The notes: generated by a model not told the origin, from the sequence alone. Shown: positions 131 to 19,750, numbered from the stretch's first letter. The stretch: DNA of 24,000 bases from Verrucomicrobia bacterium LW23 (GCA_003054695.1 QAZA01000045.1:669956-693955), one strand, 5' to 3'. Numbers and translations: made by a program.

Positions 131-232
131 CCCCCGTTGCGACCGTTGCGTGAAAATCCGCCAGGTACTTGGCTCCGCGAGTAGACGTAGCCCGACGAGG
201 AACAGATTTTCACGCAACGGCCGCAACGGGGG
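131..232. repeat. Imperfect palindrome, 28-nt arms and 46-nt loop (9-bp-periodic hairpin superfamily, CCGTTGCG variant)
   Basis: Left arm 131-158 is CCCCCGTTGCGACCGTTGCGTGAAAATC. Right arm 205-232, GATTTTCACGCAACGGCCGCAACGGGGG, is its reverse complement with one mismatch (27/28). The arms are a tandem CCGTTGCG(A/T) 9-mer bracketed by a C-run and a G-run. Weaker complementarity continues outward to roughly 110-260. Confidence 0.85.
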
Positions 233-304
233 AAGAAAGCTTGCTTGAGCGGGCTGCCTGTCAAAGCGCATCCTTCCCCTTTTGGTCCAGGGAAGCGCCT
301 GTTT

Positions 305-346
305 AGACCAATTCGGTTCAGAGCAAATCACATGGTTAGTTGGTCT
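305..346. repeat. Short hairpin with AGACCAA termini, possibly an internally deleted relative of the 17709-17872 palindrome
   Basis: AGACCAATTCG at 305-315 is identical to the first 11 nt of the 17709-17872 palindrome. TTGGTCT at 340-346 is the inverted terminus, and 28 nt lie between them. Confidence 0.4.
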
Positions 347-413
347 TACGCATGGGTTTAAACTGCTCCAAACGTCATTTCGAACGTCCCCGCGCGAGCT
401 TTTGCAATAGCCT

Positions 414-914
414 TTAATCCACCGCGGCTATTGCATCCGCGTTGATGGTTTTGGCGATACGGGTGAGCTCGTGGTCGGTGGCGCCTTCCTCGTCCAGGGT
501 GCGTTGCAGGAGCTTGGCTATCTCCTTGTGGCCCAACAGTTCGGCAAAGATGCGGGCGGTGCCGTAGCCGGCGATCTCGTAGTGCTCCACGCGCTGGGCG
601 GCGGCGATGAGCGCGGCGTCCTTCACGGCGACTTCGGCGTCCTCGTGGATGACGTCGGCGCCTTCTTCCACGAGGCCCTTCATCGCGGCGCAGGATTTGC
701 CGCGCGGGGAGGCGCCCAGCTGCTCCATAATTTGCTCGATGCGGGCGGCGTGCTCTTCGGTCTGCTTCAGATGCTTCTCAAAGCCGGCGCGCAGTTTGGG
801 CGATGAGGCCGCCGCCGCCATTTTGGGCAGCGCCTTGATGAGCTGCGTTTCCGCACTGTAAAGATCTTTAAGTTCGTGCACCAGAAGCTGTTCTAGAGTG
901 GATAGTTTGGACAT
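414..914 (-). CDS. DUF892 / YciE-YciF family ferritin-like stress protein
   Basis: The 166-aa product from the ATG at 912-914 (MSKLSTLEQLLVHELKDLYSAETQLIKALPKM ... AAAQRVEHYEIAGYGTARIFAELLG) resembles the YciE/YciF four-helix-bundle family over its whole length. The 240-aa ORF-track version (to 1136) only adds 74 non-conserved residues. Confidence 0.9.
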   Translation of the reverse strand: MSKLSTLEQLLVHELKDLYSAETQLIKALPKMAAAASSPKLRAGFEKHLKQTEEHAARIEQIMEQLGASPRGKSCAAMKGLVEEGADVIHEDAEVAVKDAALIAAAQRVEHYEIAGYGTARIFAELLGHKEIAKLLQRTLDEEGATDHELTRIAKTINADAIAAVD

Positions 915-1221
915 GAGAGAAACGTGTTTTGAAGTAATGAGAATGTGACTTGACGATGATTTTAGGAGAGGCAAGAGCCGTGCCATGTCACTCGCGATAT
1001 CTGCATCCTTCTGCCTGCCAACATGTTGCGCTTCCCGCAAGCGAGTGCGTCGCGCTGCCTCCATGCAAAATGTCGGGCGATACGATCCCGCAGCCTGCGG
1101 AATGCATGGAAGGAAGGAGTGCCCCCGCGGATCCACTCCCCTTCATGGTCCCCACCTTCGCGCTTTTCCGTGGTGAATGCTCCCCCGCTTCCCCTGTCCC
1201 CATGGAAGGCGGACCATTTTC

Positions 1222-1251
1222 TTGCGAAAACGGCGTCAAATGTGTGATAAT
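1222..1251 (+). promoter_or_regulatory. Candidate sigma70-type promoter with extended -10; the predicted TSS falls on ATG 1258 (leaderless mRNA)
   Basis: TTGCGA (1222-1227), an 18-nt spacer ending in TGT (1243-1245), then GATAAT (1246-1251). The A of ATG 1258 lies 7 nt after the -10 hexamer. This rests on motif matching only. Confidence 0.3.
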
Positions 1252-1257
1252 GCGGGG

Positions 1258-2298
1258 ATGCATGCGGAAGCGAAAAACCTGCAGGCGGCGCTGTCCCCGT
1301 CGCCGGCAGAATCGGCGGATCGGGCAGGCTCCACAACCAGCACAACACCAGCTCCTTCGGGTAGCGGCGCCAACGAGCGCGTGGTGCGGCTGCTGACGGT
1401 GGGCAACAGCTTTGCGGACGACGCCACGTTTTTCCTGGCAAAACTTGCCCGCAGCGCCGGCGGCCGGCTCGTAATGCTGGGCTGCAACCTGGGCGGCCAC
1501 AGCTTTGAGCAGCACGCGGGCTATATGGCTGCGTATGAGAAAGATGCGGAGGATCCCGCCGGCACGCCGTACCGGGATCGCATCCACCCCGTTACGGGTG
1601 CGACAACCCATTTCTCCCTGCGCGCGGGCCTGGAGGCGGACGCGTGGGACTACGTTACCGTCCAGCAAAACAGCATCCAGAGCTTCCGTCCGGAGACCTA
1701 CGAGCCGTGGGCGACCGAGGTGCTTGCCTACATTCGCAAGCACGCGCCGCAGGCGGAAATCCTTGTGCATGAGACCATTGCGTATCGCGAGGACTCGCCG
1801 CTCTTTGCGGCGTCCGATACGTTTACGCAGGCCGCCATGTACAACCGGCTGCGCGCCGGCTACGCGGCCCTGGCAGCGCGCAACGGGCTGCGCGTCATCC
1901 CCGTGGCCACCAGTTACCAGACGGCGCGTGCCACGCCGGAGTGGACGTTTACGCGCGACCCGGCGTTTGATTACGACAAGCCCGTCTACCCCGCGCTGCC
2001 CGATCAGTCCAAGAGCCTTAACATTGGCTACAAGTGGGACGCCCCGGCCCCGCTGAGCGGCGGCAAACCCACCTTCGGCCACGATCCCAACCACAGCAAC
2101 GACTTTGGTAAGTACCTGGGCGCGTGCACCTTTTACGAAGTGCTGTGGCGCGATGACGTGCGCAGATGCACCTTCCATCCCCCCACTATCACCGCCGGGC
2201 AAGCCGACCACCTGCGCGAGATCGCCCACCAGGCCGTCGCCTCCCGCGCAGACGTGGCGCTAAGCCCGGCAACACCGGCCGGCGTTGCCACGGCGTAA
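1258..2298 (+). CDS. DUF4886-family SGNH-like hydrolase (function unknown)
   Basis: The collinear pattern typical of DUF4886 is present: VRLLTVGNSFADDA, GCNLGGHSFEQH, AWDYVTVQQNS, EILVHETIAYRED, VIPVATSYQTAR, and HSNDFGKYLGACTFYEVL at the C-terminus. The start is uncertain: ATG 1258 is preferred, with ATG 1177 and 1240 as alternatives. No N-terminal hydrophobic signal peptide is visible with any of them. Confidence 0.85.
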   Translation: MHAEAKNLQAALSPSPAESADRAGSTTSTTPAPSGSGANERVVRLLTVGNSFADDATFFLAKLARSAGGRLVMLGCNLGGHSFEQHAGYMAAYEKDAEDPAGTPYRDRIHPVTGATTHFSLRAGLEADAWDYVTVQQNSIQSFRPETYEPWATEVLAYIRKHAPQAEILVHETIAYREDSPLFAASDTFTQAAMYNRLRAGYAALAARNGLRVIPVATSYQTARATPEWTFTRDPAFDYDKPVYPALPDQSKSLNIGYKWDAPAPLSGGKPTFGHDPNHSNDFGKYLGACTFYEVLWRDDVRRCTFHPPTITAGQADHLREIAHQAVASRADVALSPATPAGVATA

Positions 2299-2369
2299 CG
2301 CCGCGCGTAAACGTTTTGTCAGCCGCGGGACCGTGCCTGCCCGGGGGGGAGACCAGGATCCCGCTGGCG

Positions 2370-2957: not shown

Positions 2958-4160
2958 TCAGTCCGCCTTTGCCCCACCTTGCCAGGCGCAACGGAGGTTG
3001 AGGAGGCGGCGCCCGGCGGCGTCGAGGGTCTCCAGGCGCTTGGCGAAGTGGAAACGAATGTAGGTGTGCACGCCGGCCCCGGGGTCCGCCGTGTTGCGGA
3101 AGAAGCTGGAGCCAGGGACGCCGGCGACGCCGACTTCCTTGGCAAGCCACAGCGCAAAGTCTGTATCCCGCTCGTAGCCAAAGCTTTGGATGTTGACCAG
3201 GACGTAGTAGGCGCCCTCGGGCGTCTCGAATTCCAGGCCCGCGTCGCGCAGGTAGCCGAGGAAGAGCTCGCGCCTGGTGGCGTAGTCGCGCGCCAGCCCG
3301 GCGTAGTAGTCATCGCCCAGCTGCAGCGCGGTAACGGCGGCCTCCTGCAGCGGTGCGGCGGCGCCCACGGTCAGGAAGTCGTGCACCTTGCGGGCGCCGG
3401 CGATAACCCGCTCGTGCGCAAGCACATAGCCCAGGCGCCAGCCGGTAATGCTGTACGTTTTGCTGAGGGATCCGCACGTGATGGTGCGCTCCCACATGCC
3501 GGGCAGTGTGGCAAAGTAGATGTGCCGGTGGGGCGCGTAGACGATGTGCTCGTACACTTCGTCCACAATAACAAACGCGTCGTGCTCCACCGCCAGCCGG
3601 GCGATGACCTCCAGTTCGTCCGCGCGGAAGACGCGGCCGCTGGGATTGGCCGGGTTGCACAGGATAATCGCCTTGGGCCTGTGCTGGCGGAACGCGTGCG
3701 CAAGTTCCTCCGCATCAAACTCAAACGTGGGCGGGCGCAGCGGGATAAAGACAGGCACGGCGCCGCTCAGGATCGCATCGGCCGCGTAATTCTCGTAAAA
3801 CGGGGTAAAGACGATGACTCGATCGCCCGGGTTGCACGCCGTCATCACCGCCACCATCATCGCCTCCGTGCTGCCGCAGGTGGTAACGAGGTGCTTGTCG
3901 GGATCGATTCCGGCCAGCCCGGTAAAACGCCGCAGCTTCTCGGCCAGCGCCGCGCGAAAGTTGGGAGCGCCCCAGGTGATGGAGTACTGGTGCACGGGGC
4001 GCCGCACCGCGCGTTCCAGCGCCTCCAGCACAACCTCCGGCGGTTCAAAGTCGGGGAACCCCTGCGCCAGGTTAATGGCGCCATGCGTGTTCGCCACGCG
4101 CGTCATTTCGCGGATAACAGATTCGGTAAAGCCTTTGAGGCGGTCGGCGGTATCGGGCAT
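2958..4160 (-). CDS. PLP-dependent class I/II aminotransferase (YbdL / kynurenine-aminotransferase-like)
   Basis: The 400-aa product carries the fold-type I hallmarks: AINLAQGFPDF, GSTEA, NPANPSG, and the PLP-lysine motif SLSKTYSITGWRLGY. It has an ATG start and is full length. Confidence 0.95.
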   Translation of the reverse strand: MPDTADRLKGFTESVIREMTRVANTHGAINLAQGFPDFEPPEVVLEALERAVRRPVHQYSITWGAPNFRAALAEKLRRFTGLAGIDPDKHLVTTCGSTEAMMVAVMTACNPGDRVIVFTPFYENYAADAILSGAVPVFIPLRPPTFEFDAEELAHAFRQHRPKAIILCNPANPSGRVFRADELEVIARLAVEHDAFVIVDEVYEHIVYAPHRHIYFATLPGMWERTITCGSLSKTYSITGWRLGYVLAHERVIAGARKVHDFLTVGAAAPLQEAAVTALQLGDDYYAGLARDYATRRELFLGYLRDAGLEFETPEGAYYVLVNIQSFGYERDTDFALWLAKEVGVAGVPGSSFFRNTADPGAGVHTYIRFHFAKRLETLDAAGRRLLNLRCAWQGGAKAD

Positions 4161-4500: not shown

Positions 4501-6279
4501 ATGGCCGCACGCAAAAAAACATCCGCAGCGCCCGCTCCGTCCAAAGCCAGGGCGAAAGCCGCACCCGCTGCCCCCCGCAAGGATAAGGATAAGCCAAAGA
4601 CGACCGCCACAGCAGCGGCAGCATCCGCAGCGCCGGCCCCGGCCGATCCGCCCATCCGCAAAGGCACCACCACCACGCCAAACGTCGCGGCTATTGCGGC
4701 GCGGCGCAAGGCGCTGGCAACAGCGGCGGTGGCTTCCGCCTCGGGCGGGCGCGAGCTGGTGCTGGGCATTGATGTCGGCACCTCCTCCATGCGGTGCGCT
4801 TTGTTCGACATTAAGGGCAACCGCCTGCCGGAGACAACCGCGCAGGCCGGCTACAGCCTGCGCGTCAAGGGCGACGGCACGGCGGAACTCGCTCCCGCGC
4901 AACTACTTCGCGCCACCGTTCTGTGCCTGCAAACCACTCTGGCCGCGCATGCGCAGGCGGAGGGCGGCCTCTCCACGCGCGCCATCGTCGCTGTGGGCAT
5001 GTCCTGCTTCTGGCACAGCCAGATGGGCGTGACGGCCGCCGGCAAGGCGGTTACCCCCATCTACACATGGGCCGACGCCCGCTGCCGCGAGGACGCCGCG
5101 CGCCTGCGCCGCACGTGGAGCGAGGAGGAAGCCCATGCCCGCACCGGCTGCATGGTGCGCTGCAGCTACTGGCCCGCCCGGACCACCTGGCTGCGCCGCA
5201 CCAGCACAGAGCTGTGCGCCCGCGTGGCCCGCTGGGTCAGCCCCGGCGAGTGGCTGCTGGAGCAACTGACCGGCCACGCGCAATGCTCCATCAGCATGGC
5301 CAGCGGCACCGGCCTCTACAACATCAGCGGGCTGGAGTGGGACGGCGTCATCCTCGGCCGCCTGAACCTGAGCGCCAGCCACATGAATCCTGTCAGCGAC
5401 GAGCCACTGCGCATGTCGCCCGAGATGGCCGGCAAATACCCCGCGCTGGCGGAGGCCGCATGGTACAGCCCCATCGGCGACGGCGCGGCCAGCAACCTGG
5501 GCAGCGGCGCGGTGGGCAACGGCATGGCGGCCATCAACGTAGGCACCAGTGCGGCCGTGCGCATCATCCACAAGCTGGGCGAGGACGAGACGGCCGGCGC
5601 ACCGCTCGGGCTCTTTTGCTATCGCGTGGATGACAAACGCGAGCTTGTGGGCGGCGCCATCTCCAACGCGGGCAACCTGCGCGCCTGGTGCCTGCGCGAG
5701 CTGATGCTGCCCGACGACGACGCCGTCATCGAGCGCGCGCTGAAGGAAATGCCCGGCCCGGACCACGGCCTCACCGTCCTGCCCTTTTGGGTAAATGAAC
5801 GCGCGCCCACCTGGCCGGAGGACCTCAGCGGCACCATCTTTGGCCTGCAACAAAGCACCACCGCCGTCGACATCCTCCAAGCCACCACCGAGGCCGTCTA
5901 CCATCGCCTGGCGGAGATCATCCGCAAAATGCGCGACGGCGGCCAGACCGCGCGCCAGCTCATCGTAAGCGGCGGTATCCAAAAGAGCCGCAGCGCGTTA
6001 CAACGCCTGTGCAACGTGCTGGGCCAACCCGTGTGGGCCAGCCCGGAGCCCGAAGCCAGCCTGCGCGGCGCCGCCGTCTACGCCCTGGGCCGCATGGGCC
6101 GTGACGTCGCCGCCCCCGAGCTGGGCAAGCCCCTGGAGCCCGACCCGGAGATCGCCACCGCGTACGTCGCCGCCCGCACCCGCCAAATCCGCCTGGAGGA
6201 GGCGATGCACGCCTACGTCAAGCCCGCCCCCACCATGCCCGTAGGCGGCGCCCACCACCTGCCGCCGCTGACGGATTAG
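4501..6279 (+). CDS. FGGY-family carbohydrate kinase (gluconokinase-like) with an ~85-aa basic Ala/Pro/Lys/Thr-rich N-terminal extension
   Basis: The FGGY N-terminal phosphate-1 motif LVLGIDVGTSSMRCALFD starts at aa 87. The C-terminal domain motifs are GGAISNAGN and LIVSGGIQKS. The only ATG upstream of the kinase core is 4501. An in-frame GTG at 4759 (VLGIDVG) is an alternative start that would remove the extension. Confidence 0.9.
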   Translation: MAARKKTSAAPAPSKARAKAAPAAPRKDKDKPKTTATAAAASAAPAPADPPIRKGTTTTPNVAAIAARRKALATAAVASASGGRELVLGIDVGTSSMRCALFDIKGNRLPETTAQAGYSLRVKGDGTAELAPAQLLRATVLCLQTTLAAHAQAEGGLSTRAIVAVGMSCFWHSQMGVTAAGKAVTPIYTWADARCREDAARLRRTWSEEEAHARTGCMVRCSYWPARTTWLRRTSTELCARVARWVSPGEWLLEQLTGHAQCSISMASGTGLYNISGLEWDGVILGRLNLSASHMNPVSDEPLRMSPEMAGKYPALAEAAWYSPIGDGAASNLGSGAVGNGMAAINVGTSAAVRIIHKLGEDETAGAPLGLFCYRVDDKRELVGGAISNAGNLRAWCLRELMLPDDDAVIERALKEMPGPDHGLTVLPFWVNERAPTWPEDLSGTIFGLQQSTTAVDILQATTEAVYHRLAEIIRKMRDGGQTARQLIVSGGIQKSRSALQRLCNVLGQPVWASPEPEASLRGAAVYALGRMGRDVAAPELGKPLEPDPEIATAYVAARTRQIRLEEAMHAYVKPAPTMPVGGAHHLPPLTD

Positions 6280-6549: not shown

Positions 6550-7656
6550 TCAATACGCCGCCTGCGTGGCGTTGAGGGAGGCGGCCCAGTTGGGCTCCGT
6601 TGCGTAGGCGTCCGCATCGGCGCGCTCGGGGGCGAGGAGGTAGGCGTCGCAGGCGGCAAACAGCTCGGCCAGGGTGGAGGCTTTGCGGAGGTTGCGGACA
6701 AACGCGTCGTCGCCGCCCAGGCCGGGAGCGATGTAGTTGAGGAGCTTTTTGAGGTGGCCCAGGTGGGCGCGCTCGCTGGTGCCTTCGCGGCGGGTTTCGC
6801 GCGCCAGCACGTCGATGTAGCCCCGCACGTCGGCCATGGTGGGGCGGAAGCGCGGGGCGCCGGCCGGCAGCTCGTAATGCTCGCGTATCTGGCGAAATAT
6901 CCACGGGTTGCGGATGGCGCCGCGGCCGATCATCAGCCCGCGCACGCCTGTATCGGCAGTGATGGCCTGGGCCGTGGTGGTGCAGCGCACGTTGCCGTTG
7001 GCCAGCACGGGGGTGCCCGCGCCGGGCGCCTGCATGCGCCGGGCGGCGGCGCCGATAAGGTCGTAGTGCACCACCGGCCCGTACATCTCGCGCACGGAGC
7101 GGCCGTGCACGGTCAGGGCGTCGAGCTGGTGCGAGGCGAAGATGTCGAGCAGCCGCGGGAAGTCGGCCGCGCTGTCGTAGCCGATGCGTGTCTTTACTGT
7201 AAAGCCGATGGCCGCGCCGCTACCGTCGCCGCACGGGGCGCCGATGGCTCCGCGCAGGGCGCGCAGGATGGCGTCGATGTGCGGTAAGTCGCGCAGCAGG
7301 CCGCCGCCGGCGTCCTTGCGGCACACAACCGGAGCCGGGCAGCCGAGGTTAAGATCCACAGCCACAATGGGATGTCGCTGCAGCACGGCTGCCGTCCGTA
7401 CCAGGCTGGGGATGTCGCGGCCAATCATCTGGGCGATAACAGGCCGGCCCGTTGCGTTGGCGTCGATATCGGCCAGGATGGGCTTCTCCGGGTGGCTGTC
7501 GGGATGCACCCGAAAGTACTCAGTATACAGCACATCCGGCGATCCATAATGCGCCAGCACGTTCCAGAACCGCAAATCCGTCACATCCTGCATGGGCGCC
7601 AGCGCCAGCACCGGCCGGTGCGCCGGGAGAAAGCGTTGGAGGACGGAGGCATGCAT
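6550..7656 (-). CDS. dus: tRNA-dihydrouridine synthase family protein
   Basis: The 368-aa product from the ATG at 7654-7656 (MHASVLQRFLPAHRPVLALAPMQDVTDLRFW...) carries the catalytic-cysteine motif DLNLGCPAPVV and a TIM-barrel Dus pattern. The longer track ORF (to 7806) reads into a palindromic repeat. Confidence 0.9.
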   Translation of the reverse strand: MHASVLQRFLPAHRPVLALAPMQDVTDLRFWNVLAHYGSPDVLYTEYFRVHPDSHPEKPILADIDANATGRPVIAQMIGRDIPSLVRTAAVLQRHPIVAVDLNLGCPAPVVCRKDAGGGLLRDLPHIDAILRALRGAIGAPCGDGSGAAIGFTVKTRIGYDSAADFPRLLDIFASHQLDALTVHGRSVREMYGPVVHYDLIGAAARRMQAPGAGTPVLANGNVRCTTTAQAITADTGVRGLMIGRGAIRNPWIFRQIREHYELPAGAPRFRPTMADVRGYIDVLARETRREGTSERAHLGHLKKLLNYIAPGLGGDDAFVRNLRKASTLAELFAACDAYLLAPERADADAYATEPNWAASLNATQAAY

Positions 7657-7701
7657 GGCGGGGAGGGGAAAGGGGAATGGAGGAAGGGAAAGGGGAATTG
7701 T

Positions 7702-8089
7702 ATAACCACGAAGCACACGAAGCACACGAAATTTCGGACGGGGACGAAAAGGGGCGGGGACTTTAGAGGCAGGCTCGCCGTGGTGCACTCCCCCCGTCCT
7801 TACCATTTGTCCCGTCCCCTCTTCGCGTCCTTAGCGTCCTTAGCGTCCTTAGCGTCCTTAGCGCCCTTTGCGCCCTTTGCGCCCTTTGCGCGAATAGGCC
7901 CCACACGTATCGCCTCACGTTTACGCAAGTCCTTACCACAACGAAGTTTCACGCAAAGAGCGCAAAGGACGCAGGGGACGCAAAGGGGGGATTAAGGCAA
8001 TAGAAATGAACTCGTCACCCCTTGTCCCTTGTCTTGTGTCCCCATCCCCTTTTCGTCCCCTCCGTAAATTTCGTGTGTTTCGTGGTTAA
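7702..8089. repeat. Outer inverted repeat of a nested palindromic complex (arms 7702-7761 and 8038-8089)
   Basis: Left arm: ATAACCACGAAGCACACGAAGCACACGAAATTTCGGACGGGGACGAAAAGGGGCGGGGAC. Reverse complement of the right arm: TTAACCACGAAACACACGAAATTTACGGAGGGGACGAAAAGGGGATGGGGAC. They differ by a handful of mismatches and indels, and the left arm carries one extra CACGAAGCA 9-mer. G-rich and C-rich flanks extend the symmetry to about 7660 and 8128. Confidence 0.8.
7816..7990. repeat. Inner palindrome of the nested complex; arms built from CCTTNGCG 9-mers (left 7816-7892, right 7950-7990)
   Basis: The left arm contains (CGTCCTTAG)x4 at 7826-7861 followed by (CGCCCTTTG)x3 at 7862-7888. The right arm CACGCAAAGAGCGCAAAGGACGCAGGGGACGCAAAGGGGGG is the complementary 9-mer type but roughly half as long (41 nt against 77 nt). 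The loop is about 57 nt. Confidence 0.8.
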
Positions 8090-8281
8090 ATCCTCCCCCT
8101 TCCCCTGCCGTTCCCCCGTTTTCACGCGTAAAGTCGAAGAAAAGTCTTTCTCCTGAGCGCCGGACGGCATAAAAGGTTCCTTTCGACGCGTTCCTTTGGT
8201 GCGCGACGGGGCGGGAATCCTCCGGGTTTCCGCGCCGGCTTTCACTCCTTAGCCCTTCAGCATCAGCATCTTGCAGCAGTA

Positions 8282-11522: not shown

Positions 11523-11613
11523 CCGGCCAGGCGCCCCGCCGCCCCTCGCCTGCGGGGGAAAGCCGCGCGTCACGGGGCTTTACCGTAATGCTGTTGTTAT
11601 GGGATGTTAGGGG

Positions 11614-12165: not shown

Positions 12166-12513
12166 CCACGACCTTACGGCGCGCAACAGCCCCAGCATGG
12201 AGATGTTGCGTACCTACAGAACGCTGCGGAATTTCATCGTCACCCAGAGCTCACGCCCGGACTTCACGCCCCGGGCTACAGGCTTTCGCGCCTGGGGCGT
12301 TTCAGAACGCGGTGCAAATTCCTGCTTTCGTCGCAAGCCATTCCGGCGTATGATAGAAGCGGGTTGTGCAGGCTGCATGGCCTGCTTGCATTTGACACAA
12401 CGTATCCTCCTCATTATTTCCAGAGCCCCCTTACCGCTCGGTAGAACGCCACTTTTTCCGTCCGCTCCCCCTCGGGGCGGACAATATAAACACTTTTTGG
12501 TGAAATAATTTGA

Positions 12514-13143
12514 ATGCACGAGTCCCTGCCAGCGTCAGAGCCTGTAGAAGACGTGACATCCGAGACCGAATGGCGGGAGCGCTTATGCTCCGGTGACGAA
12601 GCGGCCTGGGCGGCGCTGCATGAGGCGCACTATCCCCGGCTTTGGAGCAGCGTTAACCGGATATTAAACAATCCCAGCCATACGGACGACATCGTACAGG
12701 AGGCTTTTGTAAAGGCACATCGGGAGATCGGCCGATTTCAGGGACAATCCCGCTTAGGGACGTGGCTCTACCGAATCGCCGTGAACCAGACGCTGGACTT
12801 TCTGCGCAAGCAGCAGCGGCTGGACCGATGGCTCTCTTTCTTCAGCCCCTTGCGCGACAAGGACGATGACACGGGAAGCTCGAACGTTGTGCCCGAGGGC
12901 GCGGTGGAACCCACCGTTACCGCCGGCCTGCACAATGCGGAGTTGCGCGAGACCATCGCCGCAGCCATCGCCGAGCTCTCCCCGGAACATCGCGCCGTCG
13001 TTCAACTCCGGCTTATCGACGAGATGAGTCTGGAGGAAACCGCGACCTTGCTTCGGTGCAAACCGGGCACGGTCAACTCGCGACTGCACTATGCATGCGA
13101 GCATTTGCGGCGGAAGCTGCGCCACGCAGTAGCCTCAGCCTGA
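12514..13143 (+). CDS. ECF-subfamily RNA polymerase sigma-70 factor
   Basis: Region 2 is DDIVQEAFVKAHREIGRFQGQSRLGTWLYRIAVNQTLDFLRK. Region 4 is LSPEHRAVVQLRLIDEMSLEETATLLRCKPGTVNSRLHYACEHLRRKL. Confidence 0.93.
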   Translation: MHESLPASEPVEDVTSETEWRERLCSGDEAAWAALHEAHYPRLWSSVNRILNNPSHTDDIVQEAFVKAHREIGRFQGQSRLGTWLYRIAVNQTLDFLRKQQRLDRWLSFFSPLRDKDDDTGSSNVVPEGAVEPTVTAGLHNAELRETIAAAIAELSPEHRAVVQLRLIDEMSLEETATLLRCKPGTVNSRLHYACEHLRRKLRHAVASA

Positions 13144-13171
13144 GCCTAAGGAGGGCTCCTTAATTCGAACA

Positions 13172-13570
13172 ATGAACAACGAGAATCTCAAAGAAATACT
13201 GCTCGCCTGCGATGAAGACGCTCGCGCCCGCGCCCGGCTTCATCAGGCCAGGGAGTGGCGAGAGCTTCGCGGTCGCTTGTTCGGGCAGGAAGCCGACGCG
13301 GAAGAGAAGCACGCAGCCGCCGGCTGGTGGTCGCTCAACTGGCTGACGGCCGGTGCCGTAGCCCTGGCCGTGGCCGCCGCCAGCGCCGGCCTGGTCTTCC
13401 AAAGCCCCAACGGCGGGCCCGGTGTCGTGAGCAACGATCCCCAGCACAAGGACGTGCGCCCCGCTAACCCCGAAGGCAACACCCCCCGCGATCCGTCCGC
13501 CCTGCCTGTCGAAGATCAGCAGCAGCAGAACAACAACAACCGTCCCCAGCGTCTCCCGGGCATTCCGTAA
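13172..13570 (+). CDS. Candidate single-pass membrane anti-sigma factor (hypothetical protein)
   Basis: It starts 28 nt after the ECF sigma stop on the same strand. It has ~50 N-terminal charged residues, one TM segment (WWSLNWLTAGAVALAVAAASAGLVF), and a ~55-aa Pro/Gln/Asn-rich tail. It has no zf-HC2 motif, so the call rests on position and topology only. Confidence 0.6.
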   Translation: MNNENLKEILLACDEDARARARLHQAREWRELRGRLFGQEADAEEKHAAAGWWSLNWLTAGAVALAVAAASAGLVFQSPNGGPGVVSNDPQHKDVRPANPEGNTPRDPSALPVEDQQQQNNNNRPQRLPGIP

Positions 13571-13834
13571 CCCGGGCGCGCCTCGCGCACCCGCGGCAGC
13601 CATCCTGTAGGGCCGGCGCCGCAGAATTGCAGCACAGTGAACGTAAAGCCTTTCCCCGCCCAAAGCGCAACATAACGCGCAGACGGAGAAAGGCTTGCGT
13701 TGTTTCAGGGTCTTTTCTGAAAAGCGGTCGCGCCAGTCGCCGCGCCCCCCTTTTGTGTCGTTGTGCCTTCCTCGTGAAGACTCCGCTCTGAGGCCAAGTC
13801 GCCGGGAGGAGGGGAACTCAGAGCAAAAGCCATT

Positions 13835-13942
13835 CAAGCTGGCGCGGGGTTGGCTCTCCGAGAACGGCGGAGCCGGACGTTCGCAACACAAGCTGGCGCG
13901 AGCGACGCTCTCCGAGAACGGCGGTAGCCGTTCCATAGCATA
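13835..13942 (+). repeat. Two tandem 54-bp units duplicating the 5' part of the family-2 element
   Basis: Unit 1 is 13835-13888 and unit 2 is 13889-13942. Both carry CAAGCTGGCGCG, then 7 variable nt, then CTCTCCGAGAACGGCGG(T)AGCCG. Only unit 2 continues into the full element. Confidence 0.8.
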
Positions 13943-14233
13943 GCCCGGGGTTGCCCGCAGCATTCTGATGCGAGGACTACCCCGGGTAGGCTGGAATCAG
14001 GAAACCCCACGCGAAGAGTTCTTCCGTCGGACCCTTCGCGCTCGTTCCTCGCGCGTGCCATGTTCGGAGCCGCAGCATCAGAGAGCGCCTCGCACATGCA
14101 TTAAACGAGCGCGAGTGGATCGCAATAAGACCAATTATCGGAATAAACCGGTACATTGGTGGGGTAGTCCTCGCATCAGAATGCTGCGGGCAACCCCGGG
14201 CTATGGTATGGAACGGCTCCGCCGTTTTCGGAG
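13910..14233. repeat. ~325-bp composite palindrome formed by two inverted family-2 elements
   Basis: The outer arms 13910-13986 and 14161-14233 are reverse complements with 3 differences by eye. A second tier is TCGCGCTCGTT (14036-14046) with AACGAGCGCGA (14104-14114). Both tiers share a centre near 14074. The right half additionally carries an AGACCAATT...ATTGGT mini-hairpin (14128-14160). Confidence 0.85.
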
Positions 14234-14418
14234 ACCTACGACACCGTTACGTAGCGGCGAGCGTTGAATGGAAGGGGGAAGCGCGGAGGGAGCGGTTTCA
14301 ACACGAGTGTGGAAATGACGCAATCCGAGGCGCCACGGGCGCGAAAGCCCGCCCTTTCCGCATTGACTTGCCGCCGCGGTATGGCACAAGGTTTCCCCCC
14401 GTTGGTGCTGATGCTGAG

Positions 14419-16278
14419 ATGGGGGCCTGCTGCGGCCACCGCCGGCAGCCGGGTGCCCGCCTTTTTTACCCTGTGGAAATCAATACAGTAGGCCGTCCGC
14501 GTAACGTGGGCTGGATCCGCGCCGCCGCCTTGTTGTATGGCGACTGGGGCACGAGCAAGGCGTATGTCCTGGGTCTGGGCCTGGCTACCATTGGCTTTCA
14601 TGCGTTGCCGCACTTTATGGCCGTGTGTTTCATCACGGCGCTGGTGGGCATCAACTACATCTGGGTCTGCAAGTTTTATCCCAACGGCGGCGGCGTCTAC
14701 TCGGCGGCGCGCGATCACGCGGACTGGCTGGCGGTGGTCGGCGCGCTGCTATTGATAGCGGATTACATCGTTACGGTATCGCTCAGTAGTCTGGAGGCGT
14801 TCCACTACCTTGGCCTGGATGACGCGGAGGCGCAGCGGTACACCATTCTCGCCATCTTTTTTGTTGGCTTTATCAACTACTTTGGCCCCAAGCACACGGG
14901 TGGCATTGCGGTCTGGCTGGCGCTGCCAACGGCGGCGGTGGTGCTGGTGCTGCTGGTGAGTGGCGTGCCGCATCTGGGCGAGTACAAGGGCGAGTGGCCG
15001 GTGGGCACGTGGACGGACAACTGGTTTCAGTTTGTCGCGCTTATTCTGGCGCTGAGCGGTGTGGAGGCGATTGCCAGCACCACAGGTGTTATGCAGCTGG
15101 ACAAAGGCAGCACCAACGAGAACCCCAGCGTTGTCAGCACCGCCAGCAAGGCCATCCTGGTCGTGATGGTCGAGGTCGTCATCGCCACCGGTTTCCTGTG
15201 CGTGCTGGCGCTTTGCCTTCCCGCAGATGGCGCCACCAAGCACAAGGAGGATCTGCTGCGCTACATGGCGGAAGTCTTTGTGGGTAAATCCTTTGGCTGG
15301 GTGGTGGGCGTAACGTTTGCGCTGCTGCTGCTCAGCGCCGCCAACACGGCCATCTGCGGCCTGGTCGCCGTCATGTACATGCTGGCGCGCGACAAGGAGC
15401 TGCCGGAGCCCTTTACGCATCTCAACCAGTTTGGCGTGCCCTGGGTGGCGCTGGGCATCTCCACCGTCATGCCCATCATCGTCCTCAACATCGCCCCCGG
15501 CGTGCAGGCGCTGGCGGATCTTTACGCGATAGGCGTGGTGGGCGCCATCACCATCAACCTCGGCTCGTGCAGCTACAACAACAAGCTGCCGATGAAGGGC
15601 TACGAGCGGTGGACGATGCGGCTTACCTTCTACTTTATGGCGCTGGTGTGGCTCAGCATCGCCTTCCACAAGCTGCACGCGCTGGGCTTTGTCGTTGTCA
15701 TTCTCGGCGTCGGCCTCGCCATCCGCTCCTACACGCGCAAAATGCTCATCTCGGCGGAGCCCTCCGAGGAGCAGAAAGAAGCTTTGCGCAAAATCGAGGC
15801 CGAGCGCCTGGAGCGCCTGGCCGACCTGCAGAAGGCCGCCGATCAGCAGGCCGCCGCCGCCCTGCCGGCCGAGGACCTCAGCGACACGCGCATCCTGGTG
15901 GCCGCCCGCGGCCGCACGCCCGCGCTGGCCTTTGCGATGGAAGAAGCCCGCATGCGCAAGGCGCGCCTGTTCGTCCTGTACATCCGCGAGGTGCGCGTGA
16001 ACATTGCCACCGACAGCGACTGGCGCGACGACCCGCAGGCCCGCGCCCTGTTCGAGTACGTGCTGACCGAAGCCAAAGGCGTGCGCGTGCGCCCCATGTA
16101 CAGCGTCAGCAACTCCCCGGCGGAGACGATTCTCGACATCATCGGCGTGGTGGAGGCCAACATGGTCATCCTGGGCGGCAGCCGCCGGGCCACCTTCGTC
16201 AACCTGGTAAAGGGCAATGTGATTACGGCCGTGGGCACCTATGTGGATCCTTCCGTGCGGCTGGTGATTATCGGGTAG
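14419..16278 (+). CDS. APC-superfamily permease fused to a C-terminal universal stress protein (USP) domain
   Basis: The polytopic N-terminal part has APC-like motifs (LLYGDWGTSKAYVLG, YPNGGGVYSAARDH) and many hydrophobic helices, followed by a charged coiled linker. The USP-like domain at 15889-16275 is RILVAARGRTPALAFAMEEARMRKARLFVLYIREV ... MVILGGSRR. Start ATG 14419 is chosen because the track start at 14203 lies inside a repeat. Confidence 0.85.
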   Translation: MGACCGHRRQPGARLFYPVEINTVGRPRNVGWIRAAALLYGDWGTSKAYVLGLGLATIGFHALPHFMAVCFITALVGINYIWVCKFYPNGGGVYSAARDHADWLAVVGALLLIADYIVTVSLSSLEAFHYLGLDDAEAQRYTILAIFFVGFINYFGPKHTGGIAVWLALPTAAVVLVLLVSGVPHLGEYKGEWPVGTWTDNWFQFVALILALSGVEAIASTTGVMQLDKGSTNENPSVVSTASKAILVVMVEVVIATGFLCVLALCLPADGATKHKEDLLRYMAEVFVGKSFGWVVGVTFALLLLSAANTAICGLVAVMYMLARDKELPEPFTHLNQFGVPWVALGISTVMPIIVLNIAPGVQALADLYAIGVVGAITINLGSCSYNNKLPMKGYERWTMRLTFYFMALVWLSIAFHKLHALGFVVVILGVGLAIRSYTRKMLISAEPSEEQKEALRKIEAERLERLADLQKAADQQAAAALPAEDLSDTRILVAARGRTPALAFAMEEARMRKARLFVLYIREVRVNIATDSDWRDDPQARALFEYVLTEAKGVRVRPMYSVSNSPAETILDIIGVVEANMVILGGSRRATFVNLVKGNVITAVGTYVDPSVRLVIIG

Positions 16279-16338
16279 CGGCACAAAACAGCTCACTTTC
16301 TGCGTGCGGTAAGGACGGATGCGTTTATCCTCTCCGCC

Positions 16339-17577
16339 ATGTGGAAGTCCCATAACAAGGAAAATGCCGCCACCCAAAGCTGGTGCGAGTATGACGACGC
16401 GCTCACCACGCTGAAGGGCAAGCTGCACTGGCCCTACCAGCTCACCGTGCGCATCCCGTTTATGACGGACGCGGAATCCGCCGCCGAGGCCCCCGCGCGC
16501 GCCGCCACGGAGCAGGAGCGCGCCAGCATCGCGGCGTTTCAACAGGAGCTGGCCGCGCGGCTGGGCGGGCGGGACAACGTGCTGGTAATGGCGCGCTGCT
16601 GGCACCTGGCCAGCGCCCAGCTGGAGTTTCGCGTGCACGACGCCAGAAAGACCGAGGCGGAGATCAAACGCATCAAGGCCGAGGAAAAGACCGCGCACCC
16701 CTTTATGGCCCTGCTCTTCCTGGATGGCACCTGGTCCATCCCGCACAATTACCGCTCCGGCGGCATCGTTTCCGGCCAGGCCGGCGGCTCCCTGGCAGGC
16801 AGCGAAGGCAGGCTGATGCAGGGCCTGGAAGGGCTGAGCCCCGAGGCGCTGGCCGAGGCCCTCAAAAAGCGGATTCAGGAGCAACTGACCCAAAAGCTGC
16901 AGAAAGAATTTGGCGGCACCTTGCCCGACCTCACCTCCGAGGAAGCCATGCAGCTGATGCACGCGGAGGAAAGCGACCTGGTGAACGACGACGACGAGGA
17001 GGAGGAGTCCGAATTTGACGAGGAGGACGAGGATTTTGACCTGGATGAGGATGACGAGGACGACGAGGATGATGATGATGACGACGACGACCTCGACCTG
17101 GAAACGGCCATCCGCCGCGAGGAGCTGCGCGGCACCCTGCACACCGCCACCGGCATGGATCGCATCCCCCTGATCTGCGAGCTGACAACCACGGCCGAAA
17201 CCAAGGAGCAGATGGAAGAAGCCCTGGAGCTGGTGCAGCAATCCCTCGCCACCTTCCCCACCGACCACCGCCTGCGCAACAGCCACGGCTACCTCCTGTT
17301 CTTTGGCGGGGAGCTCGAAGCCTCCCGCCGCGAACTCCTCGCCGCCATCGACGGCAACGAGCTCGTCGCCGAGTACCACCACAACCTCGCCCACACCCTG
17401 GCCGCCCTGGACGAGCACGACGCCGCCGTCGCCTCTCTCAAAAACGCCACGCTCATCGAGCCCTTTCGCATGATGATGATCGGCATGGACCCCCTCCTGG
17501 ATTCCCTGCACGACCACCCCGGCTTCAAGGAGCTAATGAAAGGCGACATCACGGACGAGGAGGAGGAACAAGAGTAG
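16339..17577 (+). CDS. Hypothetical protein with a hyper-acidic tract and a C-terminal TPR-like region
   Basis: The 412-aa ORF starts 60 nt after the permease gene. In aa 217-255, 33 of 39 residues are D/E (nt 16987-17103). The C-terminus has TPR-like helices and ends in DPLLDSLHDHPGFKELM, a pattern common at the end of TPR domains. The N-terminal ~140 aa is vaguely DUF695-like (low confidence). Confidence 0.7.
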   Translation: MWKSHNKENAATQSWCEYDDALTTLKGKLHWPYQLTVRIPFMTDAESAAEAPARAATEQERASIAAFQQELAARLGGRDNVLVMARCWHLASAQLEFRVHDARKTEAEIKRIKAEEKTAHPFMALLFLDGTWSIPHNYRSGGIVSGQAGGSLAGSEGRLMQGLEGLSPEALAEALKKRIQEQLTQKLQKEFGGTLPDLTSEEAMQLMHAEESDLVNDDDEEEESEFDEEDEDFDLDEDDEDDEDDDDDDDDLDLETAIRREELRGTLHTATGMDRIPLICELTTTAETKEQMEEALELVQQSLATFPTDHRLRNSHGYLLFFGGELEASRRELLAAIDGNELVAEYHHNLAHTLAALDEHDAAVASLKNATLIEPFRMMMIGMDPLLDSLHDHPGFKELMKGDITDEEEEQE

Positions 17578-17708
17578 GCAGAGGCAGGCCACCCCCACCC
17601 AAGGCAAGGCAAGACAATCCTCCGAAGCGCCACCGGCGCGATACGCGGGCTTACACCCTGGCATCGGGCTTTCGCGCCAGTGGCTCTCTAGGGGGATACA
17701 AGCCTCTA

Positions 17709-17872
17709 AGACCAATTCGCAAAGTTATTTGCTCTTTATGCGGAGCTGATTTTGGGCTATGGGTGCGCTGAAACGGAGGGAGTGCATTAGGATAATGCTC
17801 GACCGGAGTTTCAGTGCGGCCATAGCCCAAAAGCGGCCCGCAAAAAGCGCAAATAACTTTGCGAATTGGTCT
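17709..17872. repeat. 164-bp imperfect palindrome (family 3) with AGACCAATTCGCAAAGTTATTTGC termini
   Basis: 17709-17732 and 17849-17872 are perfect reverse complements (24/24). The arms stay roughly three-quarters identical to the centre, GCATTA-GGA-TAATGC (17784-17798). Each arm also contains a local CGCAAA-N4-TTTGC(G) hairpin. Confidence 0.9.
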
Positions 17873-17929
17873 AAGCTTGGGATAAAGGGGGAAACGTAAG
17901 GAAGGTTGAACATCGTGGAGGCAATCCTC

Positions 17930-18045
17930 TTGGCGAAACTTTCCGCCCTTGGCGATGTTATCTGAAGGTCCGTAGATCCAAGGCAGATAATATCGCCAAG
18001 GACGGAAAGTTTCGCCAAGGGAAGCAGCGGAAATGTCGACAGCCT
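17930..18045 (-). repeat. Palindromic element abutting a stop codon, copy 2 (minus-strand orientation)
   Basis: On the minus strand the MBOAT stop TAG (18046-18048) is followed immediately by AGGCTGTCGACATTT (18045-18031), the same 15-mer that follows the gmd stop. The arms 17930-17964 and 17984-18018 pair at 33/35 with a 19-nt loop. The shared arm core is CTTTCCGTCCTTGGCG. Confidence 0.9.
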
Positions 18046-19464
18046 CTAAAACTCGTAATACACAAACGGCATGGCCTTGCCGGAGGTGGTGGCGGCGATG
18101 ATGCCGAACAGGGCGATAAAGCAGGCGGCCTGGGCGTAGTTGGGCATCTCGGCAAACCGGCGCTCAAACCACTCGGCGGAGGAGTTGGGGGCAAAGTGCA
18201 GGGCGGCGGCAAGCAGGAGGATCAGCACTACGTTGGGGTTGAGCATCGCCGTGCCCATGTGCAGCTGCGCCATCTTGGCAAACATGGCGGCGACGACTTC
18301 CAGGTTTTCGGCGCGGAAGAAGATCCAGCAGGCGCACACAAAGTGGAAGGTGAGGATGCCGCCCACCACGCGGCCGATGGTCGACTCCACCTTCTCGCGC
18401 CCGGTAAGCTGGTAGTAGATGGTGACGAGCGTCATGCCCGTGCCGTGCAGCACGCCCCAGATAACGTAGCGCCACTCCGCTCCGTGCCACAGGCCGCACA
18501 GAAACATCACGATCCACATGTTAAAGTACATGCGCAACATGCCGCACCGGTTGCCGCCCAGCGGAATGTACAGGTAGTCGCGAAACCACGTGGAGAGACT
18601 GATGTGCCAGCGTCTCCAGAACTCGCGGATATCGGCCGACTTGTAGGGGGAGTTGAAGTTCTCAGGTATGGTAAGGCCCAGCAGCAGGGCGCTGCCGATG
18701 GCGATATCGGTATAGCCGGAGAAGTCGCAGTAGATCTGGAACGCGTAGGCGTAGACGCCGATAAGCGTCTCGAACGAGCTGTAAAAGCTGTCCTTGTCAA
18801 ACGCCTGGTCGACGATATTGGCGCCCAGGTAGTCGGCAATCACCAGCTTCTTGAACAAGCCGCACAGGATAAGCCACAGGCCGCGCGAGCCCATCTCGCT
18901 GGTCAGCACCGGCGTCGCAAGCATCTGTGGCAGAAAGGTTTTGGCCCGGATAATCGGCCCCGCCACCAGGTGGGGGAAGAAGCTCACATACGCCAGGTAC
19001 TCGTGGTAACGGTTGCACGGCTCCAGATCCCGCCGGTAAAGCGAGATGATGTAGCTCATCGTCTGGAAGGTATAGAAGCTGATGCCGGGCACCATGGCGA
19101 TGCTCCAGGGAATGTCCGGCCGCGCCTCGCCCGTCCACCACGCAAAAATGTCGGCATAAGTGGCACCGGCAAAGTTGGCGTACTTAAAGAACGCGAGCAG
19201 CCCCATGTTGGTGCAGATGCTGCACAACAGCAGGGCGCGCCGCTTCCACTGCACGTCGATCCCGGCCATCTTCCGGCCAATAAAGTAGTCCAGCGAGGAG
19301 GAGAAGAAGATCAGCGGCAAAAACTGCGGCGTAGGGAAGCTGTAAAAGATGTACGACGCCACCACCAGCACCGTGCCCCGCCACGTGCGCGAGGCATGCC
19401 CCAGCCAGTAGGCAACAAAAACAATCAGCAAAAAGATGCCGTATGTGGGATCCGTAAATTGCAT
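18046..19464 (-). CDS. MBOAT-family membrane O-acyltransferase (AlgI / DltB / PatA-like)
   Basis: The 472-aa polytopic protein is collinear with P. aeruginosa AlgI, including ISFYTFQTMSYIISLYR, FPHLVAGPIIR, YCDFSGYTDIAIG and the invariant-histidine motif FWRRWHISLSTWFRDYLYIPLGGNR. Confidence 0.95.
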   Translation of the reverse strand: MQFTDPTYGIFLLIVFVAYWLGHASRTWRGTVLVVASYIFYSFPTPQFLPLIFFSSSLDYFIGRKMAGIDVQWKRRALLLCSICTNMGLLAFFKYANFAGATYADIFAWWTGEARPDIPWSIAMVPGISFYTFQTMSYIISLYRRDLEPCNRYHEYLAYVSFFPHLVAGPIIRAKTFLPQMLATPVLTSEMGSRGLWLILCGLFKKLVIADYLGANIVDQAFDKDSFYSSFETLIGVYAYAFQIYCDFSGYTDIAIGSALLLGLTIPENFNSPYKSADIREFWRRWHISLSTWFRDYLYIPLGGNRCGMLRMYFNMWIVMFLCGLWHGAEWRYVIWGVLHGTGMTLVTIYYQLTGREKVESTIGRVVGGILTFHFVCACWIFFRAENLEVVAAMFAKMAQLHMGTAMLNPNVVLILLLAAALHFAPNSSAEWFERRFAEMPNYAQAACFIALFGIIAATTSGKAMPFVYYEF

Positions 19465-19607
19465 GCGAGCGTTGGGGCGGGGAGGGGGAGAGAGGAGAGA
19501 TATCGCAAACGACGCGCGCCGGCGTCAGGCCCATTCGCGAGGGGGTTGGGGGGAAACGGGGTTTAATCTTCTGCAGCTGATTACCTGTCCTCTGGTTTTC
19601 AGCATCT

Positions 19608-19750
19608 TTCCCCCCTTCGCGCTCTTTGCGTCCTTGGCGTCCTTTGCGCTAAAACCTGTATGAAGTACCGCCACACAAATCGATATCGCTATACGTCTGG
19701 GTGATTTCACGCAAAGGACGCTAAGGACGCAAAGAGCGCGAAGGGGGGAA
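19608..19750. repeat. Palindrome with 41-nt arms (40/41) and a 61-nt loop; CCTTNGCG 9-mer arms
   Basis: Left arm 19608-19648 is TTCCCCCCTTCGCGCTCTTTGCGTCCTTGGCGTCCTTTGCG. Right arm 19710-19750 is its reverse complement apart from one G/A difference. It sits in the 369-bp gap between the giant SGNH gene and the MBOAT gene. Confidence 0.9.

Follow-up and report, generated by a model that had tools for sequence, protein, structure and literature searches.

Five intergenic hairpin loci of Verrucomicrobia bacterium LW23 as candidate copies of a dispersed repeat family built from phased 9-mers

The DNA analyzed here is a 24,000-nucleotide stretch of Verrucomicrobia bacterium LW23 (GCA_003054695.1 QAZA01000045.1:669956-693955), referred to as the window, with positions counted from its first letter and a G+C content of ~64%. 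It contains at least five intergenic hairpin loci, the arms of which repeat every 9 nt around an invariant CTT-N-GCG core. Because these loci do not show the defining features of repetitive extragenic palindromes (REPs), miniature inverted-repeat transposable elements (MITEs), terminators, integron attC sites, CRISPR arrays or Rfam families, we interpret them, with a probability of about one half, as copies of a dispersed, non-autonomous intergenic repeat family of new unit design, organized in a manner similar to REPs and bacterial interspersed mosaic elements (BIMEs, or REPINs). The family has multiple copies, all of them in non-coding DNA and some nested, and copies have been gained or lost between relatives; its members usually abut stop codons or fill intercistronic spacers.

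An inverted-repeat search and Tandem Repeats Finder were run on the window. The loci are located at 130-233 (A), 7682-8109 (B, with a nested pair at 7816-7990), 10095-10220 (C), 17920-18045 (D) and 19608-19750 (E). All six loci described in an initial annotation of this DNA, which had listed the nested pair separately, were recovered by the inverted-repeat search. It gave an arm complementarity of ~80-100%, with hairpins of 26-46 bp and loops of 19-61 nt. The module comprises 9 bases, CTTNGCGNN. Three consecutive CTTNSCGNN modules were matched 11 times in the window (0.00 expected), and TTTCACGCAA, at the "inner boundary" of the hairpins, four times (0.05 expected). The 9-bp unit length proposed in the initial annotation was confirmed by Tandem Repeats Finder, which reported period 9 at 7707-7730 (CACGAAGCA, 2.7 copies), 7821-7890 (7.8 copies, 95% matches), 7951-7986, 19624-19648 and 19709-19734. 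When folded as RNA, the loci reached -65.7 to -94.3 kcal/mol (z -7.1 to -14.8), values that 0/200 shuffles equaled, and the 456-nt composite of locus B reached -208.6 kcal/mol (z -8.5). The elements and arms are as follows:

120-245, no strand assigned: hairpin A, arms 130-158 / 205-233 of 29 nt, 97% complementary, loop 46 nt
7682-7759, no strand assigned: outer left arm of B, purine strand with tail TATAACC, CACGAAGCA x2.7 and a G-rich extension; pairs with 8041-8109
7816-7894, plus strand: inner left arm of B, C-rich start, 8 modules, tail CGAATAG
7946-7990, minus strand: inner right arm of B, tail GTTTCAC, 4 modules (CGCAAAGAG, CGCAAAGGA, CGCAGGGGA, CGCAAAG), G-run
8041-8109, no strand assigned: outer right arm of B, ...AAATTTCGTGTGTTTCGTGGTTAAATCC and a C-rich extension
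10095-10220, plus strand: element C, flank 10095-10129, arms 10130-10158 / 10189-10217, loop 30 nt
17920-18045, minus strand: element D, arms 17929-17964 / 17984-18019, 94% complementary, loop 19 nt
19608-19750, no strand assigned: hairpin E, arms 19608-19653 / 19705-19750, 93% complementary, loop 51 nt

Each arm of hairpin A carries two modules (CCGTTGCGA, CCGTTGCGT) and the tail GAAAATC, and the palindrome continues outward as GCAAGCT...AGCTTGC. The hairpin folds at -76.7 kcal/mol (z -11.8) and is located on the 3' side of the DUF892 gene (414-1136, minus), at a distance of ~180 nt. Locus B is nested, with an outer purine-arm-first pair (7682-7759 / 8041-8109, 80-84% complementary, CACGAAG 9-mers, GGTTAAA/TATAACC tails) around an inner pyrimidine-arm-first pair (7856-7894 / 7948-7986, 82%). 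The modules of its inner left arm are CTTCGCGTC, CTTAGCGTC x3, CTTAGCGCC, CTTTGCGCC x2 and CTTTGCG, and the inner right arm is half as long (4 vs 8 modules). This composite is located between two divergent genes, dus (minus, start near 7650) and khpB/jag (8282, plus). Five AGGGGAA heptamers (purine run, 7664-7697) adjoin the probable dus start codon; together with their C/T-rich complement at 8085-8110, they stretch the outer palindrome to ~450 nt, spanning the whole divergent dus-khpB promoter region.

Element C takes up the entire 126-nt spacer between the gmd stop (10094) and the stop of a convergent open reading frame (ORF; 10221). Its arms are composed of CTTGGCGAT, CTTTCCGTC, CTTGGCG and the tail TTAA, are complementary at 26/26 positions over 10133-10158 / 10189-10214, and fold at -65.7 kcal/mol (z -7.1). 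Element D (-71.3 kcal/mol, z -10.0) belongs to the C subfamily in opposite orientation, its flank (18045-18020) beginning directly after the MBOAT stop codon (18046-18048). The two elements share a one-sided 5' flank, 35 nt long in C, that opens with the identical 15-mer AGGCTGTCGACATTT directly after the gmd (TAA) and MBOAT (TAG) stops; the 11 matches of this 15-mer in viral contigs are estimated to be at or below chance. Comparison of C and D revealed homologous arms in which the differences are mirrored in the partner arm, including a compensated indel (ATC/GAT vs AAAC/GTTT), and loops that cannot be aligned, as anticipated by the initial annotation, which described complementary arms within each copy and differences between copies. 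Hairpin E lies between GYF/GDSL and MBOAT, 84 nt past the stop of the former and 144 nt ahead of the start of the latter. It consists of a C-run, four modules (CTTCGCGCT, CTTTGCGTC, CTTGGCGTC, CTTTGCG), the tails CTAAAAC / GATTTCA, the complement and a G-run, and it folds at -94.3 kcal/mol (z -14.8). The single palindrome design that had been proposed for all loci holds as far as the hairpins themselves are real, but not for the purine-first outer pair of nested B or the one-sided flank of C and D; likewise, the C-run said usually to open the 5' arm is missing from element D.

The unit is an arm of ~40 nt, polar and non-palindromic, comprising a pyrimidine run (a C-run in this genome), usually three 9-mers, and an A-rich tail G-K-T-N-A-A. 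Module positions 4, 8 and 9 are free, with CTT-N-GCG invariant. The sequence TTTCACGC, which had been regarded as a shared inner boundary, does recur and is actually the A-rich tail of the unit. The basic unit is the arm and not the palindrome. Single arms have no self-structure; folded as DNA they reached -0.9 to -12.4 kcal/mol (z +1.6 to -2.2), no better than shuffles. Exactly three modules were present in 57/60 intergenic arrays outside the window, with a scan pattern that itself demanded at least three; the array is thus a defined unit rather than an open-ended microsatellite. Growth by 9-mer slippage, as suggested by the initial annotation, is therefore applicable to locus B only, where four and three identical tandem modules occur. 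When 88 units (87 originating outside the window) were combined into a profile, it matched all five window loci and nothing else significantly, with E-values of 5e-9 and 1e-8 for hairpin E.

All pairs of the window have their tails inward, except the outer pair of B. Among 75 candidate inverted pairs in the collected sequence, some of them overlapping or weak, 57 were tails-out (purine arm first), the arrangement that prevails in other phyla, and 18 tails-in. The core matched at 16-18/18 positions in 44 inverted pairs, even where only 1-2/7 variable positions matched, and the persistence of the core despite randomized free positions indicates that it is constrained independently of arm pairing. 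The free positions of paired arms matched at 3.7/7 compared to 2.5/7 for shuffled partners (0/5000 permutations as high). Pair complementarity ranges from perfect to random, and the window pairs are at the perfect end. Other 9-mer types (CACAGAG, CACGAAG, CACGGAT/CACAGAT, ATCCGCG and GCCACAG) were observed beside or inside CTTNGCG units in several phyla, namely, at positions 3040-3230 of fetched locus L020, in the loops of L032, L050 and L080, and at L041, L059 and L076. Some neighboring arms are of different 9-mer types, for which poor pairing is expected. Judged from these motifs, the sister types suggest a superfamily with the purine-strand consensus C-R-C-N-R-A-K-N-N.

Dispersal of the family is indicated by comparisons between genomes and between loci. 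The closest public relative of the window is a "Candidatus Methylacidiphilales" (Verrucomicrobiota) metagenome-assembled genome (MAG), with an MBOAT protein identity of 75%. At its syntenic GYF-MBOAT locus both D and E are absent, and no module was found in its 7 kb; a metagenome scan with the MBOAT protein yielded only relatives of <=48% identity. Two NC10 MAGs (loci L050 and L102) share a whole element, loop included, at 82-97% identity, while their flanks are non-homologous; in one copy, part of the loop is deleted and one arm is interrupted by 32 inserted nt. The occurrence of a whole element with its loop at unrelated loci points to copying and not to local evolution. In two short-read Logan contigs of this organism, all four ends fall inside units (window positions 8048, 10156 and 17994, and one ~420 nt past the right end). 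Such breaks are no more than suggestive, since palindromes by themselves can break de Bruijn graphs. The unit beyond the right end is of the CTTCGTG type (TCGTGTGCTCCGTGGTTAAACC, tail GGTTAAAC) and is situated at the start of a Logan contig (L203 1-30), upstream of the GYF/GDSL gene.

A scan of 185,579 public species genomes gave at least 120 loci, which are a taxonomic sample and not a census. Among the matches listed, non-coding three-module-plus-tail units, single or paired, occur in more than 10 bacterial phyla, so the family is not limited to this window or genome. The carriers include Acidobacteriota, Verrucomicrobiota, Planctomycetota, Chloroflexota (including Herpetosiphon isolates), Cyanobacteriota (Nostoc isolates), Nitrospirota, Methylomirabilota, Myxococcota, Thermodesulfobacteriota, Ignavibacteriota, some Beta- and Gammaproteobacteria, and one Methanoperedens bin. 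In the last case, a typical tails-in pair (L094 570-645) is located on a 2.3-kb contig of a bin labeled Candidatus Methanoperedens, which is either cross-domain spread or a mis-binned bacterial contig. Homology across phyla is deduced from a short motif and shared architecture, and convergence would be the alternative. Three-module arrays numbered 0 in 525 kb of loci chosen for MBOAT homology compared to 7 in the 24-kb window, the density of which is thus exceptional.

Within the plasmid collection, only two cyanobacterial plasmids, both unannotated, contain units, and the cultured-phage collection gave no match to the unit. IMG/VR contained 94 matching stretches, and in several contigs the polar unit occurs 2-6 times alongside genes for terminase, tail tube and Mu Gam. 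Some pattern matches are coding repeats, as in Ala-Lys-rich proteins of Streptomyces. On viral contigs L242, L253 and L263, the three-module-plus-GGTTC pattern was observed within a phage head-morphogenesis gene, where it encodes NREERK(D/E)REE; its nucleotides are far better conserved than the flanking codons (~65-70% identical).

Gene calls in the fetched loci are crude and position counts approximate. Units were found in convergent and divergent spacers at 23 vs 12, solo units had the purine strand in sense at 20 vs 9, and many units begin 1-30 nt past a stop codon. On phage contigs, the elements occupy tight intercistronic gaps, or they are located past a canonical terminator and ahead of the following start codon. 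At L210 (2960-3150 and 6000-6230) and L255 (13560-13760), which belong to one phage-like contig, the elements follow terminator-like hairpins with T-runs, 22-50 nt before gene starts; the loops are themselves palindromic, and each ~95-nt element forms one long hairpin. No U-tract follows the window hairpins on either strand, where G-runs and A-rich sequence are found instead. The terminator scan detected 18 canonical sites in the window vs 18.4 expected, i.e., no enrichment, and flagged none of the five loci as a whole; its sole internal match is a 7-pair sub-hairpin in the right arm of B (7966-7948, minus). Loop lengths of the inverted pairs modulo 3 were distributed as 11/18/28 (hand count; rough p ~0.02), a result confounded by duplicate copies.

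A tails-out element at L214 (4213-4309; IMG/VR 3300036987_000093) lies across a gene start, with the purine arm directly 5' of the ATG (4238), the loop encoding residues 1-15, and the pyrimidine arm encoding LFALLAAFAL. In a 723-aa fiber-like ORF, this peptide forms the hydrophobic core of the N-terminus (MKNEIRGWRAEVASVLFALLAAFALNAPAQD...), which resembles a signal peptide. The arrangement may be an exaptation or may serve translational occlusion of the start codon. A general coding role as a signal or small membrane peptide was rejected, as the F/L-Ala-x frame is open for >=100 codons in 22% of cases vs 20% and 16% for the other frames. Sigma-70, ECF-type (extracytoplasmic function) and sigma-54 promoters and the RNA polymerase pause consensus were also discarded, because a hand check against the unit revealed spacings that do not fit.

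We compared the elements to known classes. Rfam 15 gave 0 matches at the gathering score, and below threshold only generic miRNA-precursor hairpins (22-28 bits vs cut-offs of 56-100). No description of the family was found in the full-text literature (8.3 million texts), including a survey of GTAG/CGTC REPs and a paper on intrastrand triplexes, or in plasmid and phage annotation, in agreement with the initial annotation, which could not match it to a named repeat family. A Pfam scan of the translated repeats and a protein-database search with the repeat translation gave no match either. REP dimers are of the types HH/TT/HT, and REPs carry the tag GTAG or CGTC (PMC3733652). The resemblance of the present family to REPs, BIMEs and REPINs lies in extragenic, inverted head-to-head or tail-to-tail dimers which fold into long hairpins, mostly at gene 3' ends or within operons, and in high copy number, co-evolving dimer arms and copies gained or lost between relatives. 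The REP unit, however, is an imperfect palindrome of 20-40 nt, whereas the 9-mer unit is a non-folding three-module array with an A-rich tail. GTAG is absent here, and CGTC occurs only inside GCG-TC-CTT, at free module positions. REPs are lineage-specific, in contrast to a CTT-N-GCG core common to more than 10 phyla and to phages. Furthermore, REPs are mobilized by the IS200-like Y1 REP-associated tyrosine transposase (RAYT), the gene of which usually has REPs on its flanks and which was detected neither in the window nor among 88 neighboring ORFs elsewhere. The REP/BIME-like character assigned by the initial annotation therefore applies to inverted unit pairs that are extragenic and near gene ends, while the arms themselves are not REPs.

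Other systems share single traits with the family. The DNA uptake sequences (DUS) of Neisseria and the uptake signal sequences (USS) of Pasteurellaceae are ~9-10-nt motifs read by sequence, scattered, and often present as inverted pairs just downstream of genes, with the hairpin as a by-product of two paired recognition sites. Uptake sequences are single motifs, each within one naturally competent family, and are common inside genes, whereas here the motif is non-coding, occurs in unrelated phyla, and stands in three copies at a constant 9-nt phase followed by a tail. Similar to attC sites, the elements are imperfect palindromes with conserved structure and complementarity and variable sequence and loop, but the R''/L''-L'/R' core sites (GTTRRRY), a cassette array and an integrase are absent, and the neighbors are housekeeping genes in mixed orientation (dus, khpB, gmd, MBOAT). 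Short phased repeats near inverted ends and short non-autonomous copies are also known from transposons with subterminal binding sites (Tn7, Mu, Ac/Ds-type) and their MITEs; in contrast to these, target-site duplications and an autonomous partner were not found, arm orientation is variable, and the modules are 9 bp compared to sites of ~20 bp. Intrinsic terminators are likewise G+C-containing hairpins shortly past stops, including between convergent genes, but stems of 26-46 bp, loops of 19-61 nt, the missing U-tract, the phased cores and the copies 5' of genes set the family apart. A CRISPR array was rejected, as the repeats are contiguous 9-mers in inverted arms and not spaced direct repeats.

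Several results weigh against a mobile repeat family or against the 3'-end role proposed for it below. No transposase, integrase or Y1/HUH (RAYT) protein was detected in the window with Pfam and NCBIfam, as the initial annotation had also stated for transposase and RAYT genes, and among the 88 flanking ORFs elsewhere there was neither a transposase nor a recurrent Pfam family, which also led us to reject a regulon or neighbor hypothesis. No mobilizing gene was thereby detected, either in the window or beside 88 elements elsewhere. Target-site duplications or defined termini were not visible by inspection at A, C, D or E. The window copies are strongly unlike one another, which argues against a recent burst from a single master copy. 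The arm mismatches of the window pairs number four, all transitions, with two G-U and two A-C on the presumed transcript strand; this 2:2 split involves too few events and shows no sign of selection at the RNA level. Locus B is flanked by divergent genes, and one L210/L255 copy is directly upstream of a near-consensus promoter, TTGACA-N16-TATGAT (sigma-70-like); given such promoter-side copies, a 3'-end role cannot be general. Finally, the recurrence of the element in genomes as compact as those of phages points to a useful cis-function over pure selfishness.

In an alternative that we consider unlikely, the elements are a host-encoded cis-signal and not selfish DNA. A conserved factor in termination, RNA processing or stability would read the modules and the hairpin, for example as a U-tract-independent terminator, an RNase III-type processing site or a site for an RNA-binding protein, recruited or re-created in each genome and phage. 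The conservation of the core across phyla independently of arm pairing agrees with such a signal, as do the 4-6 intercistronic copies in phage contigs with bona fide phage genes, the abutting of stop codons, the purine-strand bias of single units and the unenriched canonical hairpin-plus-U terminators of the window. However, the window hairpins are without a U-tract, locus B and the L210/L255 copies are 5' of genes or past a canonical terminator, only a minority of window gene ends have an element, elements are missing at orthologous sites of the relative, and a whole element with its loop occurs at unrelated loci. Usefulness is favored by the copies in phages, and mobility by the spread to unrelated loci. 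A DNA-level function appears distinctly less plausible. Here, three phased 9-bp sites would be bound cooperatively by a ribbon-helix-helix or partition/nucleoid-type protein to form chromosome-organizing, insulating or regulatory arrays, with the hairpin as a by-product. Such arrays would account for the almost constant number of three modules, free positions fixed at 4, 8 and 9, a core conserved regardless of arm complementarity, the poorly pairing adjacent arms of different 9-mer types at L020, and the promoter-proximal position of locus B and phage copies. Nevertheless, a 9-bp spacing is out of helix phase, a candidate binding protein was not found, the above-chance matching of free positions and the compensated indels are needless for simple sites, and spread to non-orthologous loci requires a copying mechanism anyway.

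Classical MITEs, i.e., elements derived from DDE transposons and mobilized in trans, with the arms as terminal inverted repeats carrying subterminal transposase-binding 9-mers, are in our estimation very improbable. Inverted arms with repeated short motifs do resemble multi-site transposon ends, whole elements were copied to new loci, B is nested, and an unrelated MITE-like palindrome at 17709-17872 implies that MITEs are active in the lineage. The MITE-like character suggested by the initial annotation nonetheless found no confirmation, as neither target-site duplications nor an autonomous partner were found; an autonomous parent element with the same ends and a transposase was not seen in ~1.6 Mb of fetched loci, and there was no full-length element with a transposase between arms. 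Moreover, the flank of C and D is one-sided, and tails-in, tails-out and many solo arms all occur. At L064 2020-3210 (Verrucomicrobia subdivision 6 MAG), two units of the same subfamily in direct orientation, each preceded by ATCTGAAAT(T/C)C, flank two ORFs of toxin-antitoxin-like appearance, which by eye we take to be a DUF433-type antitoxin and a PIN-like toxin; a tails-in hairpin and a solo arm adjoin the left copy. An artefact of low-complexity or coding tandem repeats, or of chance palindromes in GC-rich DNA, has a negligible chance. The bare pattern does occur in true coding repeats (Ala-Lys-rich proteins of Streptomyces; REERKDREE in phage head morphogenesis), but every window locus is intergenic and the chance expectation is 0 matches, inverted pairs are unexpected in coding repeats, and unselected DNA is without arrays; pattern counts, fold z-scores down to -14.8 and this unselected DNA refute the artefact for the window loci.

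For the dispersed repeat family that we favor, the following mechanism can be proposed. The invariant phased core implies a sequence-specific trans-acting factor; a protein would read the three phased cores, and this protein or a partner would spread the element. Transcribed pairs would fold into very stable hairpins of 26-46 bp and could act as 3'-end or intercistronic RNA structures, i.e., as barriers to read-through or exonucleases or as processing sites, and not as canonical terminators. Quasi-palindrome correction is an established process of templated strand switching, and by such hairpin-templated switching one arm may be copied onto the other, keeping the arms complementary. Strand switching or birth by inverted duplication agrees with the compensated indel between C and D and with the gradation of pairs from perfect to decayed, whereas independent compensatory mutation agrees less well. 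Arrays would occasionally lengthen by 9-nt slippage, as at locus B. Tentatively, and with considerable doubt, we further consider that 3 x (CTT-N-GCG-NN) plus tail is the recognition site of a widespread factor, which could be a novel mobilizing enzyme or else a conserved host protein that binds nucleic acids. In that case, the family would constitute a hitherto unrecognized pan-phylum cis-element of bacteria and phages, with the sister types CACGAAG, CACAGAG, CACGGAT/CACAGAT and ATCCGCG in one superfamily of the consensus given above.

Should the units of the different phyla be homologous, the family would rank among the most widespread small non-coding repeats known in bacteria, and it would differ in kind from REPs in that a triple recognition motif in fixed phase takes the place of the palindromic unit. 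It could give access to a putative sequence-specific factor in little-studied phyla (Verrucomicrobiota, Planctomycetota, Acidobacteriota, Chloroflexota) and would be a natural system for studying the upkeep of palindrome-arm complementarity. The units could also account for metagenome assembly breaks, given that 4/4 examined contig ends lie inside them. The initial annotation had warned that arm translations inflate ORF calls, and this was borne out by two ORFs, 6550-7806(-) and 7372-7995(+), which read through the repeats of locus B, so that the dus call is 5'-extended. Spurious proteins of this repetitive kind are probably widespread, and the family may account for recurrent "hypothetical proteins" with translations such as the LASLASLAS, FAPFAPFAR and AKDAKDAK of the window; masking of the units in annotation pipelines could prevent such inflated ORFs.

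The genes of the window, assigned with Pfam and NCBIfam, are as follows:

414-1136, minus strand: DUF892
1177-2298, plus strand: DUF4886
2958-4160, minus strand: aminotransferase
4501-6279, plus strand: FGGY kinase
6550 to ~7650, minus strand: Dus
8282-8851, plus strand: KhpB/Jag
9081-10094, plus strand: GDP-mannose dehydratase (gmd)
10221-11573, minus strand: hypothetical
11604-12353, plus strand: hypothetical
12514-13143, plus strand: ECF sigma factor
13160-13963, minus strand: hypothetical
14203-16278, plus strand: permease/Usp
16339-17577, plus strand: TPR protein
18046-19464, minus strand: MBOAT
19834-24000, minus strand: GYF/GDSL

Other repeats and signals were observed in the window. 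The MITE-like palindrome at 17709-17872 is 165 nt long, 81% self-complementary and separate from the 9-mer family, with 38-nt terminal inverted repeats (CTAAGACCAATTCGCAAAGTTATTTGC...). Its ends resemble TTAGACCATTTCGCACAGTTAATTGG, located just upstream of an IS630-type helix-turn-helix transposase fragment in the relative (L202 6395-6415), at 90% over 21 nt with a weak E-value of 0.07, and a 13-nt piece of the element end is also present at 303-315. Where ORF 13160-13963(-) and the permease gene diverge, their spacer region contains a 58-nt inverted repeat (13926-13983 / 14161-14218; 98% complementary, arms 177 nt apart) that shows no sequence relationship to the 9-mer family. It is accompanied by 13855-13875 / 14214-14234, and beside it the motif CTCTCCGAGAACGGCGG occurs in two direct copies and one inverted copy. 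The clearest canonical terminator-like site of the window, at 12368-12385, directly follows ORF 11604-12353 and is composed of the stem GCAGGC...GCCTGC and then TTGCATTTGA. Inside the TPR ORF (16339-17577), tandem repeats at 16993-17091 are rich in GAT/GAC/GAG, have periods of 3, 6, 9 and 24, and would encode an acidic Asp/Glu-rich stretch; they are unrelated to the intergenic 9-mer family.

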